Below are positions 16,938 to 18,896 of a stretch of DNA of 64,000 bases, in pieces (positions within the stretch are counted from its first letter, which is position 1; each line of letters opens with the position of its first letter). The stretch comes from a virus. The stretch spans positions 1-64,000 of the IMG/VR virus record IMGVR_UViG_3300020186_000001. One strand, given 5' to 3'. Both the position numbers and the translations under genes were made by a program. The notes under the pieces were generated by a model that saw nothing but the letters and a program-made list of their open reading frames with translations, made no database searches and was not told the origin of the DNA.

Positions 16938-17159
16938 ATGGAAATAGACTTGGACTGTCCACATTGCAGGGGCAACATCGTCAAGTCCTATGGTGACACG
17001 GTGAAGATGCGTTCAAAGCTTCTCAAGTGGGAGCGAGGTGGTATGTTCGCGATCTGTAAAGCTTGCGGCACAGACGTTCCAATTGATTTAGAGCTTATGA
17101 AATCTATCCAGGCTAAATTTATTTATGAAGTCAACTCTAAAAAAACTTGCTTTGAATAA
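16938..17159 (+). CDS. zinc-ribbon protein
   Basis: CPHC...CKAC. Confidence 0.7.
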   Translation: MEIDLDCPHCRGNIVKSYGDTVKMRSKLLKWERGGMFAICKACGTDVPIDLELMKSIQAKFIYEVNSKKTCFE

Positions 17160-17255: not shown

Positions 17256-18896
17256 ATGAGCAATTTTTACGTTGGCGAAAAAGATTTTAGAGTATGGCTT
17301 CCAGAAGTTGACTTCTGTGAGAAGGCCGATGACTCTGAATCATTTGATTCGCGAAAGCTGACTGGCATCATGTCCACTCAGCGTAAAGATCGTCAAGGCG
17401 AAGTCGTTGACGCGAAGGGTCTTGAGTTTGACGAATTCCTTCAAGCCGGTCACTTCAACGATAATCACTCCCAAGAAACATCTGCAATTGTGGGCTATCC
17501 GCAATCTGTTCGTTATCATACAAGTCTGGCTCAATTCACTGATAACAAGATTCAGGCTCCTGGCTGGACTTGTGAGGGATATGTTCTAAAAGGGACTAAG
17601 CGTGCAGATGGTATCTGGGAATTAGCGAAGGCTCTCAGAGAAGTTCCAAATCGCAAACTTGGATTCTCAATCGAGGGCAAAGTCCTTCGAAGAGCAGACA
17701 AGACTATCGAAAAAGCCAAGATCAGGAACGTAGCTATAACAAATTGCTTCCCTGGGGACACGGCTGTTTCAGGTGCCGCTGAAAAGGCAATGAGACGCTG
17801 GTATTCAGGAGATATGATTGAGATTAATTTGGCGACTGGAGAGAAACTCACCGGAACACCTAATCACCCTATATTCACGCAGCGTGGCTGGATAGCTTTG
17901 GGTGAGATTGATGAAGTCAATGATTGCGTTGGACGCTTCGATGTTGATCTCGCGAAAGCGGCTTCTTTTTCTAAGATCGCCCATGACATAGATGACGTTC
18001 CAACCACTATTGAGCAGATATTCAATGCGTCTCTTATTCCTGGAGACTCTCTCTGGATCAATAAGGCTAGAGAAAGAAATTTCCACGGCGACGGAGCCGG
18101 AAGCGATGTCGATGTTGTATTGTCCAACGGACTTCTGAGGGACCGCCTCAAAGCCTCTTTCTCGAATAAATTCGGCAACAATGTTCTCACCGTTGCCGAT
18201 AAAAAGTTGTCGAGATTCTTTAGTCTTCGACTTCTTAACAAGCTCGTCCATGCTGGACTTTGTTCCGCGTCTGGCTTCATTCGCAGCTTTAGCAAACAGC
18301 AATCTCTCGCTGGGGCTTCTTCTGGCATTTCTGGTTCTGTTGGTCTCTTGAATAGATCTAGCGATGCCGTGTCTTTTGGCGACATTGTGAACAGTTTCAC
18401 GAGTGACTCCGTATCGGGAGGCGATAAGGGAAGATGCCTCTCCGCGTCTATAGGCTTCAGCAATGTCACTCTCAAGCGAAGGTTCAATTTTTCTGGCCAT
18501 GTTTTTAATCTCGATACAAAAAATGGATGGTATCAGGCCAATGGCATAGTCGTCCACAACTGCCCAGTAAACACTGATTGCACTTGGGATCTAATCGCCA
18601 AATCATTTAATGAAGCAGACTCGGCTGTAAAGGCTATGACTGCTGGATTCGCAACATCTCCAGCCGCTCAGACGGGCGGTGGTGCAGTGAGATCTGAGTC
18701 TCTTGATTCAGATATCAAAGATGTGCATGGCGACAAGAAAAAGAAGAAAAGACAAGAGTCTCTGATGAGAGCTATCGCATTCGACGATATGGAAAAAGCA
18801 ATGGAATTGGTTTTAGAGCGTCGTCCTGATTTCGATGAGGATGCAGCGGCTATTTTTATTAAACATCTTTTCATGAAAGGAGGACAGCTATGCTAG
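17256..18896 (+). CDS. prohead protease (intein-containing)
   Basis: STQRKDRQGEVV, FNDNH, LGFSIEG (catalytic Ser) and VAITN/CPVN; lies upstream of scaffold and major capsid protein. Confidence 0.9.
   Translation: MSNFYVGEKDFRVWLPEVDFCEKADDSESFDSRKLTGIMSTQRKDRQGEVVDAKGLEFDEFLQAGHFNDNHSQETSAIVGYPQSVRYHTSLAQFTDNKIQAPGWTCEGYVLKGTKRADGIWELAKALREVPNRKLGFSIEGKVLRRADKTIEKAKIRNVAITNCFPGDTAVSGAAEKAMRRWYSGDMIEINLATGEKLTGTPNHPIFTQRGWIALGEIDEVNDCVGRFDVDLAKAASFSKIAHDIDDVPTTIEQIFNASLIPGDSLWINKARERNFHGDGAGSDVDVVLSNGLLRDRLKASFSNKFGNNVLTVADKKLSRFFSLRLLNKLVHAGLCSASGFIRSFSKQQSLAGASSGISGSVGLLNRSSDAVSFGDIVNSFTSDSVSGGDKGRCLSASIGFSNVTLKRRFNFSGHVFNLDTKNGWYQANGIVVHNCPVNTDCTWDLIAKSFNEADSAVKAMTAGFATSPAAQTGGGAVRSESLDSDIKDVHGDKKKKKRQESLMRAIAFDDMEKAMELVLERRPDFDEDAAAIFIKHLFMKGGQLC
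17745..18560 (+). mobile_element. intein (272 aa) in the prohead protease, without an in-frame homing endonuclease
   Basis: Starts CFPGDT; block B TPNHPIFT..GW; block F SGHVFNL; ends IVVHN followed by Cys; removing it restores AITN-CPVN. Confidence 0.92.
17805..18500 (-). CDS. antisense-encoded HTH + DUF559/Vsr-like (PD-(D/E)xK) endonuclease nested in the intein
   Basis: 231 aa from MARKIEP; HTH SSLIASRYGVTRETVHNVAKRHG; nuclease GENIVAEFIRERG..PQKSVGQYNIDIA..VAVEI...RIEYLLNSGWNVIYV. Confidence 0.82.
   Translation of the reverse strand: MARKIEPSLESDIAEAYRRGEASSLIASRYGVTRETVHNVAKRHGIARSIQETNRTRNARRSPSERLLFAKAANEARRGTKSSMDELVKKSKTKESRQLFIGNGENIVAEFIRERGFEAVPQKSVGQYNIDIASGSVAVEISFSSLIDPERVSRNKRRIEYLLNSGWNVIYVMGDLRKRSRFREINIEASNAIIDFINLTQSYPATLREYRVIRCSGEFLSSRQINLNHIS

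Follow-up and report, generated by a model that had tools for sequence, protein, structure and literature searches.

An uncultured 108-kb phage, part of which is the 64,000-nucleotide stretch analysed here (the window), probably carries in its prohead protease gene a mobile intein with a Vsr-like endonuclease encoded on its antisense strand (probability about 0.8). The sequence-only reading had proposed a mobile element in which the sense strand supplies a spacer that is spliced out and the antisense strand a free-standing nuclease. The predicted fold, the selection acting on the two strands and the open frames of related inteins all support this proposal. The features of the locus are collected in Table 1.

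Table 1. Features of the intein-containing prohead protease gene and of the antisense nuclease gene, in window positions.
Feature	Positions	Strand	Basis or remark
Prohead protease gene including intein	17256-18896	+	continuous ORF, 546 aa
N-extein, head maturation protease residues 1-163, C-terminal AITN	17256..17744	+	phrog_1028
Class-1 intein, 272 residues	17745..18560	+	Cys1, TPNH, GHVFNL, terminal His-Asn
Block B, TPNH, residues 201-204	17856..17867	+	minus-strand mirror is the RVIR core
C-extein, from the +1 Cys (CPVNTDC...) to the stop codon	18561..18896	+	sequence
Antisense codon-aligned nuclease gene, 231 aa	17805..18500	-	sequence, profiles, AF2 fold
Shared triplet, His415 CAT of block F and antisense start ATG	18498..18500	both	
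True double coding, ~50 codons	17805..17954	both	confident models both ways
Vsr-like nuclease domain, residues 100-224	17829..18203	-	VIA Z, column counts (75 sequences)
Invariant residues E105; N129; D131; E140	18186-18188; 18114-18116; 18108-18110; 18081-18083	-	
N-terminal HTH, nuclease residues ~7-43	18372..18482	-	AF2 helices 7-18, 23-30, 34-43
Weak Shine-Dalgarno-like CGAG, 10-13 nt upstream of the antisense ATG	18510..18513	-	complement of Leu CTC
Weak sigma-70-like promoter candidate, TTTACA/18-nt spacer/AATGAT	18602..18631	-	consensus match only

The N-extein is a head maturation protease (PHROG phrog_1028, E 1.4e-46) and is homologous to SPO1 gp3.2-type proteases that have no intein. 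The splicing blocks of the insert, described as intact in the sequence-only reading, were all located (Cys1, TPNH, SGHVFNL and HN/C). The N-terminal nucleophile Cys1 is Cys164 of the ORF (TGC, 17745-17747), the last residues of the intein are His434 and Asn435 (Asn codon AAC, 18558-18560) and the +1 residue is Cys436 (TGC, 18561-18563). TPNH and the terminal His-Asn were invariant or nearly so across 26 protease inteins, and the closest protease-intein relatives were 58-64% identical within the intein. The Pfam family Intein_splicing was matched at E 2e-7, with a score of 31.2 bits that falls under the 35.8-bit cut-off. In the AF2 model of the intein both splicing lobes had pLDDT values above 90, and Foldseek matched the model to inteins only (probability 0.9-1.0, E 4e-3 and weaker). 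Since the head protease is essential and the full set of catalytic residues is present, the intein is predicted to be excised by protein splicing.

The opposite strand holds an ORF that lies wholly inside the contiguous intein. Because positions 17256 and 17805 are each divisible by three, the same triplets are used by both frames. The coordinates thus agree with the exact codon alignment noticed earlier, with the antisense ATG placed opposite the His CAT of SGHVFNL and with the antisense TGA as the complement of a sense Ser codon, TCA, at 17805-17807. A stop arises opposite only TTA, CTA or TCA, each of which can be avoided synonymously, so that an in-register overlap is sustainable. The avoidance of these codons claimed for the sense frame was confirmed: none occurs among the 22 Leu and 30 Ser codons of the sense centre, nor among the 14 Leu and 27 Ser codons of the antisense ORF. 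Finding none in 231 codons has a probability of 4e-4 with the codon usage of the phage, which falls to 9e-5 when the amino-acid composition of the antisense product is taken into account and to 6e-6 with that of the sense product. The in-register open stretch of 261 codons was the longest among the 36 large ORFs of the window, the next being 169 codons.

The sense motif FHGDG..DVDVV, previously read as a mirror image of the nuclease, does lie opposite antisense YNIDI..VAVE (as FHGD..DVDVV). Likewise, TPNH of block B mirrors RVIR, the core of the C-terminal nuclease motif Y-R-V-I-R. The mirrored block B motif was present in 74 of 75 sampled members of the nuclease family, the residue opposite the His being always Val or Met, which places these members inside inteins. 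Over the double-coded stretch, confident structure is predicted from both strands. The sense frame encodes intein residues 21-70, the strands of the N-terminal splicing lobe (blocks at pLDDT 86-97), and the antisense frame encodes nuclease residues 183-231, with a helix at 187-202 and a hairpin at 209-224 (pLDDT 72-97). Second codon positions in this stretch were 64% identical across 9 loci.

Synonymous codon choice in block F gives an ATG and a GAG(G) on the antisense strand. Among 38 distinct related inteins, 31 had CAT as the block F His codon, compared with a CAT share of 40% in the remainder of these genes (p 5e-7). The block F Leu codon was CTC in 30 of the 38, against a background of 32% (p 4e-9). 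GGAG or GAGGT preceded the antisense start in 28 of 38 related inteins, and the ribosome-binding site of the window, CGAG, is weak compared with the GGAGGT of many relatives. The sigma-70-like promoter candidate lies ~100 nt upstream of the antisense ATG. Four sigma-70-like sites were found in the region compared to 2.7 expected from shuffled controls, which is no excess, and no sigma-28-type -10 element (GCCGATAA, at up to one mismatch) was found on the minus strand ahead of the antisense start codon.

The two strands differ in the selection acting on them. The exteins had sense dN/dS values of 0.04-0.11. In the intein centre, the sense frame had values of 0.62-1.29 compared to 0.13-0.28 for the antisense frame, in a Gordonia trio and a Vibrio pair that belong to other clades of the family than the window's own. 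In these related phage inteins purifying selection acts on the antisense frame and not on the sense centre, in line with the sequence-only reading. Within the window's own clade, at 40-55% divergence, both frames were about equally conserved. A sliding analysis over 25 codons, which is qualitative only because the intein start was misplaced, gave an antisense-like centre and sense-like flanks. The sense model had pLDDT values below 50 over intein residues 152-229 and moderate values of 86-88 over residues 121-143. The sense centre had no Pfam match, and the matches of the model to inteins align only via the splicing domain. These results, with the raised sense dN/dS, agree with the view that the sense centre is not a conserved domain. 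The antisense frame was expected to be uninterrupted in homologs, and it was open and in register in all 53 related inteins (13/13 phage records and 40/40 IMG/VR loci). Collectively, codon patterns, selection and structure models indicate that the antisense product is a genuine, selected protein.

In its AF2 model (pLDDT 92.4, pTM 0.78) the antisense product folds confidently into the HTH and Vsr-like nuclease domains suggested for it earlier. The best fold match by VIA was Vsr (1cw0, Z 9.9, 111 residues), and the homing endonuclease I-Bth0305I (3r3p) matched with Z 9.4 over 91/98 residues, as did 3hrl with Z 9.1. A profile of nine antisense members matched 3r3p at E 5e-6, and Pfam REase_MTES_1575 was matched at E 1.4e-5, under its curated cut-off. 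Foldseek E-values were weak for both the intein and the nuclease model (0.004-0.013), and the nuclease was assigned from the rank and probability of the matches, the VIA Z-scores and the sequence profile. The N-terminal HTH resembled the HTH domains of serine recombinases, IstA and Pax (VIA Z ~6) and matched the tandem-HTH chain 2lvs by profile (E 1.1e-7). Pfam HTH_7 was found in 6 of 9 aligned members, and relatives have one or two HTH modules, compared to one in the window nuclease.

Residues E105, N129, D131 and E140 were invariant in the 75 sampled family members, and all four are present in the window copy. In the window nuclease, Asp148 stands where I-Bth0305I has its general base, His213; at this position the family has His in 38/75, Asn in 13/75 and Asp in 4/75. 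No acid is conserved at the equivalent of Asp222, and an invariant Arg/Lys158 lies in that stretch. The family therefore keeps the first two residues of the composite EDxHD motif (Glu170, Asp196, His213, Asp222) invariantly without conserving the whole, suggesting that it is a related but distinct Vsr-like subfamily. Since the window copy has Asp148 at the His position and the Asp222 equivalent is not conserved, its catalytic activity is uncertain.

An intein-less allele with the junction AITN/CPVN (the slash marks the insertion point) had been predicted, and this empty site was found in at least 11 related phages. In 11 related phages and in SPO1 gp3.2, the uninterrupted junction reads ...VAITN-CPVNTDC... 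or ...VTANPVNTTC.... In the loci L020 or L023, the sequence reads ATCACAAAT before and TGCCCAGTG after the empty site. Among other phages, a pair infecting E. coli had an extein dS of 0.53 and yet 0 differences across 214 centre codons, and a Salmonella phage pair had an extein dS of 0.275 compared to ~0.01 in the centre. Such near-identical inteins within diverged host genes suggest recent transfer. Compared with the related locus L018, the window was 63% identical in the N-terminal splicing lobe and 42% in the centre of the intein, and 40% and 32% in the exteins. No near-identical copy of the window intein was found by a blastn search of the phage collection with the gene or by the IMG/VR locus search.

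These observations suggest the following model. The late mRNA would be translated straight across the intein, and the splicing lobes (Cys1, TPNH, GHVFNL and HN/C) would then remove the 272-residue insert and join AITN to CPVN, the ~170-residue sense centre serving only as a poorly structured spacer. The opposite strand would act as a separate gene, with its own ATG provided by the block F His codon and a weak ribosome-binding site provided by the block F Leu codon. Its product would be an HTH and Vsr-like nuclease related to I-Bth0305I. We infer that this gene is transcribed and translated and that its product cleaves DNA. The nuclease would cut the intein-less protease alleles (IRNVAITN/CPVNTDC) of co-infecting relatives, and recombinational repair would copy the intein into the cut allele, which amounts to homing. 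We speculate that the nuclease might be made earlier than the late host gene.

Because second codon positions are common to in-register antisense frames, both translations can be aligned, and an antisense ORF could in principle be the mirror artefact of a functional sense centre. The similar identities of the sense and antisense centres at 40-55% divergence, and the moderate pLDDT of intein residues 121-143, would fit such an artefact. The evidence on the other side led us to reject it, and we regard it as the least probable of the alternatives. The dN/dS values favour the antisense frame three- to ten-fold, and the antisense model has a pLDDT of 92, whereas most of the sense centre stays under 50. 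By sequence profile (E 5e-6) and by fold (Z 9-10), the antisense product matches a solved nuclease from an unrelated context, the sense centre belongs to no Pfam family and has fold matches only through the splicing domain, and the synonymous sense codons are biased towards an antisense ATG and Shine-Dalgarno sequence. Hardly more probable is that the antisense protein is made and has a role other than homing, for example as a DNA-binding regulator or as a nuclease directed against hosts or competing phages. HTH domains do occur in regulators, and the strict EDxHD motif is kept only in part. However, the mirrored block B indicates that the nuclease gene is intein-borne, and its catalytic acidic residues do not vary across the family. 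At one fixed site the intein is present in some phages and absent from others, and near-identical inteins sit in diverged exteins, which is the pattern that homing produces.

We consider it unlikely, though clearly less so than either of these, that the family has a genuine antisense gene of which the window copy is a decaying or inactive relic, in an intein that is inherited vertically and needs only to splice. Asp148, at a position where half of the family has the His general base, would suit a relic, as would the weak Shine-Dalgarno sequence, the lack of a convincing promoter and the failure to find a near-identical copy in other phages. Against this, the ORF runs its full length without stop or frameshift, an outcome with a probability of ~1e-4 if selection were absent, and the four invariant residues and a confident fold are retained. 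Asp or Asn occupies the His position in 17/75 members that are otherwise intact, and the intein is closer to the L018 intein than the exteins are to the L018 exteins. The mobile intein with an antisense Vsr-like endonuclease remains the preferred reading.

The nuclease family is broad, comprising at least 1752 clusters at 50% identity (E<=1e-3). Its hosts include phages of Salmonella, Escherichia, Klebsiella, Pseudomonas and Vibrio and span several bacterial phyla overall, and the host genes of the lineage encode MuF, minor capsid protein 2, prohead protease, terminase and a protein with a uracil-DNA-glycosylase domain. We lean slightly towards the view that antisense-nuclease inteins are one old, very large lineage evolving as a unit, rather than the product of a rare accidental landing of an endonuclease. 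The nuclease gene was unannotated in all 13 phage records examined, which included Salmonella and E. coli phages that are therapeutic candidates, and at least one PHROG head-protein family has been built in part from the mirror translation. This exposes a systematic annotation gap for antisense nuclease genes. The locus is also a clear natural example of a pair of proteins read from the two strands of the same triplets, in which selection measurably switches strand along the gene, and it shows how a selfish nuclease can persist in a protein-coding gene without breaking it.

The sequence-only reading had treated this layout as new. However, antisense VSR-like endonucleases in full inteins have already been described in actinobacteriophages (Gosselin, Arsenault, Gogarten, bioRxiv 10.1101/2025.01.02.630785), and the value of the window itself is accordingly modest. 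The authors report a model matching Vsr 1CW0 with Z 10.6 and 3R3P by HHpred, compared to Z 9.9 and a profile E of 5e-6 here, and call the layout rare, in contrast to the breadth of the nuclease family found here. Their inteins share with the window a contiguous intein, an antisense endonuclease ORF between the splicing blocks and a structureless sense centre. They occur in four extein types of actinophages, none of them a prohead protease, whereas the host gene here is the prohead protease of an uncultured 108-kb phage. In the sections of the preprint consulted there is no mention of the exact codon register, the ATG and Shine-Dalgarno sequence in block F or the double-coded N-terminal lobe. 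The window nuclease was 31% identical, over 95% of its length, to the antisense ORFs in the MuF inteins of the Gordonia phages Vivi2, Fosterous, Affeca and Angelicage (E 2e-24 to 6e-26).

I-Bth0305I, of the EDxHD family, is a Vsr-like homing endonuclease encoded on the sense strand in a group I intron (Taylor et al. 2011, PMC3239194). Like the window nuclease, it has an N-terminal HTH-type DNA-binding region and a C-terminal Vsr-like domain and is encoded within an element that interrupts a phage gene. Its Glu170, Asp196 and extra acidic residue correspond to the invariant E105, D131 and E140. In contrast, the window has Asp in place of His213 and lacks a conserved Asp222, and the identity between the two is only ~17-21%. 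In the 'fractured genes' found mainly in phages, a free-standing Vsr-like endonuclease gene lies between the halves of a split intein (Dassa et al. 2009, PMC2677866). There too, a separate Vsr-like gene sits where the endonuclease domain of an intein normally would. Fractured genes consist of two ORFs joined by trans splicing, whereas here the sense frame is open across the nuclease gene, so that the intein is contiguous and is predicted to splice in cis. The locus lends support to the idea that endonucleases are added, as independent genes, to splicing elements that already exist.

LAGLIDADG endonucleases read in a frame other than that of their intein have been described, in Ssp DnaX among others (Gorbalenya 1998, Gogarten 2002), and a preprint on dnaX (10.64898/2026.09.14.751524) finds a +2 ORF, with omega low in the frame of the endonuclease and raised in that of the intein. 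The window resembles these inteins in having its endonuclease outside the intein's frame and in its frame-dependent selection; the nuclease family and the host genes are different. As in canonical bifunctional inteins such as PI-SceI and TliVMA, the homing function interrupts the HINT splicing domain at the same topological point, and the intein is inserted into a conserved motif and followed by a +1 Cys. In those inteins the endonuclease is an in-frame domain, whereas the predicted nuclease of the window is a separate polypeptide encoded on the other strand.

The window covers the opening 64 kb of its source record, which is 108,329 bp long, carries direct terminal repeats and is rated complete in IMG/VR. 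The intein-bearing ORF is followed downstream by a scaffold-like acidic protein and by the major head protein (phrog_752, E 5e-88). Over its N-terminal residues 1-163 it resembles head maturation proteases (phrog_1028, E 1e-46), and both of its ends can be aligned to SPO1 gp3.2-type proteases without an intein. Directly upstream of the protease gene, the phage group conserves a small zinc-ribbon-like protein (73-86 residues) whose Cys residues form paired CPxC...CxxC motifs and which has no PHROG match. A sequence-only reading had described an intein with a codon-aligned, homing-type endonuclease ORF on its antisense strand. Examination of both strands confirmed this observation, including its frames and all of its coordinates and motifs.

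Features of the protease locus and its intein (L015, L017 and L020, IMG/VR loci; P0179 and P0180, related proteins)
Feature	Position	Strand	Details
Small Cys-motif protein	window 16938-17159; L015 1226-1486; L020 275-499		
Prohead protease ORF	17256-18896	+	546 aa; head module
Insertion site a, AITN-C	window 17742-17747		as in window
Intein	Cys1 at 17745; His-Asn ending at 18560	+	272 residues
Block B, TPNH	17856-17867	+	
Block F, GHVFNL (His codon)	18498-18500	+	His codon CAT
Antisense nuclease ORF	ATG at 18500 -> TGA at 17805	-	231 aa
+1 Cys of C-extein	18561	+	
Insertion site b, CPVNTD-C	window equivalent 18561-18581		L015, L017, P0179, P0180
Candidate promoter of antisense gene	18631->18602	-	weak consensus match; sole such site upstream

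Since 17256 and 17805 are each divisible by three, the sense and antisense frames read identical triplets. The antisense ORF starts opposite the block-F His codon, whose complement is its ATG, and stops opposite a sense Ser TCA, whose complement is its TGA. In this register, every stop codon reads as TTA, CTA or TCA on the opposite strand. In the other genes of the window these three account for 3.4% of codon usage; neither strand of the overlap contains any, although the sense frame has 22 Leu and 30 Ser codons and the antisense frame 14 and 27. The chance of such an overlap was 4e-4 by overall usage, 9e-5 by antisense composition and 6e-6 by sense composition. The in-register open stretch of 261 codons ranked top among the window's 36 large ORFs, the second being 169. 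The genetic code accounts for the register, since in no other frame could both strands dodge stops by synonymous choice alone. Strict double coding spans about 50 codons (17805-17954), which specify strands of the N-terminal splicing lobe (intein residues 21-70) and a helix plus hairpin of the nuclease (residues 183-231), both confidently modelled; substitutions within them follow a sense-dominated pattern.

The antisense product matched the Pfam family REase_MTES_1575 at E 1.4e-5, under the curated cut-off. A nine-member family profile matched 3r3p, the solved catalytic domain of I-Bth0305I (E 5e-6), the endonuclease-like protein 3hrl (E 1e-3) and the tandem-HTH protein 2lvs (E 1e-7). The AlphaFold2 model, built from a 75-member alignment, had a pLDDT of 92.4 and a pTM of 0.78, and its best Foldseek match was again 3r3p (probability 0.99). 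Using VIA-align, the model superposed on the Vsr-DNA structure 1cw0 with Z 9.9 (111 residues, 3.0 A), on 3r3p with Z 9.4 (91/98 residues), and on 1vsr (Vsr) and 3hrl with Z 9.1 each (1.9 A for 3hrl); its N-terminal 45 residues resembled recombinase, IstA and Pax HTH domains (Z ~6). E105, N129, D131 and E140 were invariant in 75/75 aligned members, and position 158 was Arg or Lys throughout. The general-base His site (His213 of I-Bth0305I; also in Vsr) is occupied in the window by Asp148 (18057-18059), a column with His in 38 members, Asn in 13, Asp in 4 and other residues in 20. In contrast to I-Bth0305I, the family does not conserve an equivalent of Asp222. The family is Vsr-like but falls short of the strict EDxHD motif of Vsr-like homing endonucleases; the catalytic set of the subfamily seems to differ from EDxHD, and nuclease activity of the window's own copy, with Asp148, is uncertain.

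Start signals for the antisense gene are apparent within block F. With p-values that are indicative only, the 38 distinct family inteins being phylogenetically non-independent, the block-F His codon was CAT in 31 compared to a 40% share in the rest of these genes (p 5e-7), giving ATG instead of GTG on the antisense strand, and the Leu codon was CTC in 30 compared to 32% elsewhere (p 4e-9), which supplies GAG to a ribosome-binding site of the GGAG/GAGGT type, 9-13 nt ahead of the antisense ATG. The window's own putative site, CGAG, is weak. The region around the candidate promoter showed no excess of promoter-like sites, and no sigma-28-type -10 element was found upstream of the antisense ATG. 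A 12-pair hairpin (6 G-C pairs) followed by a T-rich tail, terminator-like, lies on the minus strand at 18172-18199, inside the antisense ORF (codons ~101-110) where the helical N-terminal half meets the nuclease domain; it may be a chance or an attenuating structure.

An open antisense frame could be a mirror artefact of a sense-coding centre. The sense intein model (45 homologues) was confident only in the splicing lobes (residues 1-70 and 236-273, pLDDT above 90); residues 152-229 had pLDDT below 50, and all fold matches were inteins. Among three Gordonia phages and a Vibrio phage pair, which are related, nucleotide-alignable and other members of the family than the window's, sense dN/dS was 0.04-0.11 in the exteins, 0.04-0.09 in the splicing blocks and 0.62-1.29 in the intein centre. 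The antisense values were 1.4-2.3 in the exteins and 0.13-0.28 in the centre, the splicing blocks being unconstrained in this frame. Centre substitutions fell mostly at sense position 1, the antisense wobble position. The homology, fold, selection and synonymous-codon results combined reject the mirror-artefact reading. The sense translation of the intein, including part of its centre (17736-18215, protease residues 161-320), is matched by the PHROG family phrog_15127 ('head protein', profile length 602; E 4.7e-37), so that this public family derives in part from mirror translation of the nuclease gene.

A tblastn search with the nuclease matched 123 phage records (Salmonella 62, Pseudomonas 15, Gordonia 14, Klebsiella 8, Escherichia 6, Vibrio 4, and others). 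In 13/13 inspected records the match was antisense to an intein-bearing CDS annotated as MuF, minor-head or unnamed (hypothetical) head-module protein, and the nuclease gene was annotated in none of them. The in-register frame was open for 253-402 codons in the 8 tabulated records and, by pairwise comparison, across the intein in 4 of the remaining 5. Scanning IMG/VR with the protease-intein alignment gave 80 loci, 40 with an intein of the family; all 40 had the frame open (236-414 codons), and in the 38 with block F located by pattern it ran from block F to 6-41 codons past block B. Judged by sense homologues, hosts of this intein include prohead proteases, MuF (PF04233), minor capsid protein 2 (PF06152), a large terminase subunit and a UDG-domain protein. 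An exhaustive HMMER search for the nuclease yielded 1752 representative clusters at E<=1e-3 and 942 at E<=1e-10. Among sampled members, 74/75 end in a version of Y-R/W-V/M-I/V-R-G, the mirror of block B (TPNHP plus Ile or Val), with its His faced by Val or Met only. This implies that the family, as sampled, is intein-embedded throughout.

The predicted intein-less allele exists: eleven related phages have an uninterrupted IRNVAITN-CPVNTDC with the Cys already present. Their proteases are 56-73% identical to the window's, so intein presence is polymorphic among close relatives. Intein-less alleles occur among the IMG/VR loci L019-L031, for example the 273-aa protease of L020. Within a single conserved motif (...TNCPVNTDC...), the protease inteins occupy two sites separated by six codons, each taking one of the motif's two native Cys as +1 nucleophile, and the nuclease gene is present at both. 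In two E. coli Kagunavirus records (L002, L013), extein dS was 0.53 and 0/214 centre codons differed; in two Salmonella Guernseyvirinae records (L005, L012), extein dS was 0.275 and centre dS ~0.01 (6/188 codons differing). These sequence comparisons indicate that the element moved recently and horizontally between phages. The host in all four is the minor-head gene, and the nuclease is unannotated in each. The Vibrio pair had dS of 0.71 in the exteins compared to 0.12 in the centre, and the window and L018 share 63% identity in the N-terminal splicing lobe and 42% in the centre, compared to 40% and 32% in the exteins. Empty sites, together with inteins more alike than exteins, form the pattern that homing produces, and point to it indirectly, mostly through other family members.

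Building on the observed anatomy, fold, selection and empty sites, we propose that the late transcript would be translated through the element and the HINT lobes would splice out the insert, the sense centre being a tolerated spacer where inteins usually carry the endonuclease domain. Minus-strand transcription would begin at a promoter within the C-extein region or past it, with the block-F ATG serving as the translation start. Targeting of the nuclease would fall to its HTH, the Vsr-like domain would cut the intein-less allele in a relative infecting the same cell, and repair would then copy the intein in. The interpretation originally made from the sequence, apart from expression timing, is supported.

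The element belongs to a recently described kind, and its architecture is already known. A preprint by Gosselin, Arsenault and Gogarten (bioRxiv 10.1101/2025.01.02.630785) describes antisense VSR-like endonuclease inteins with hosts including minor capsid protein, a nuclease model matching 1CW0 (Z 10.6) and 3R3P (HHpred, 4.6e-5), and an in-frame centre without recognisable structure; it also cites earlier antisense LAGLIDADG inteins (Gorbalenya 1998, Gogarten 2002). A dnaX intein with an out-of-frame LAGLIDADG gene has frame-dependent omega (2026 preprint 10.64898/2026.09.14.751524), and Vsr-like homing endonucleases occur in split inteins and introns (Dassa et al. 2009, PMC2677866; Taylor et al. 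2011, PMC3239194). In their passages on inteins, Salmonella and E. coli phage papers mention the capsid-gene intein and not the antisense gene. To these systems, our analysis adds a prohead protease host beyond the actinophages; per-frame selection measured for the VSR-like type; start signals built into block F and a double-coded N-lobe; and an indication that the nuclease family is very large and always intein-embedded.
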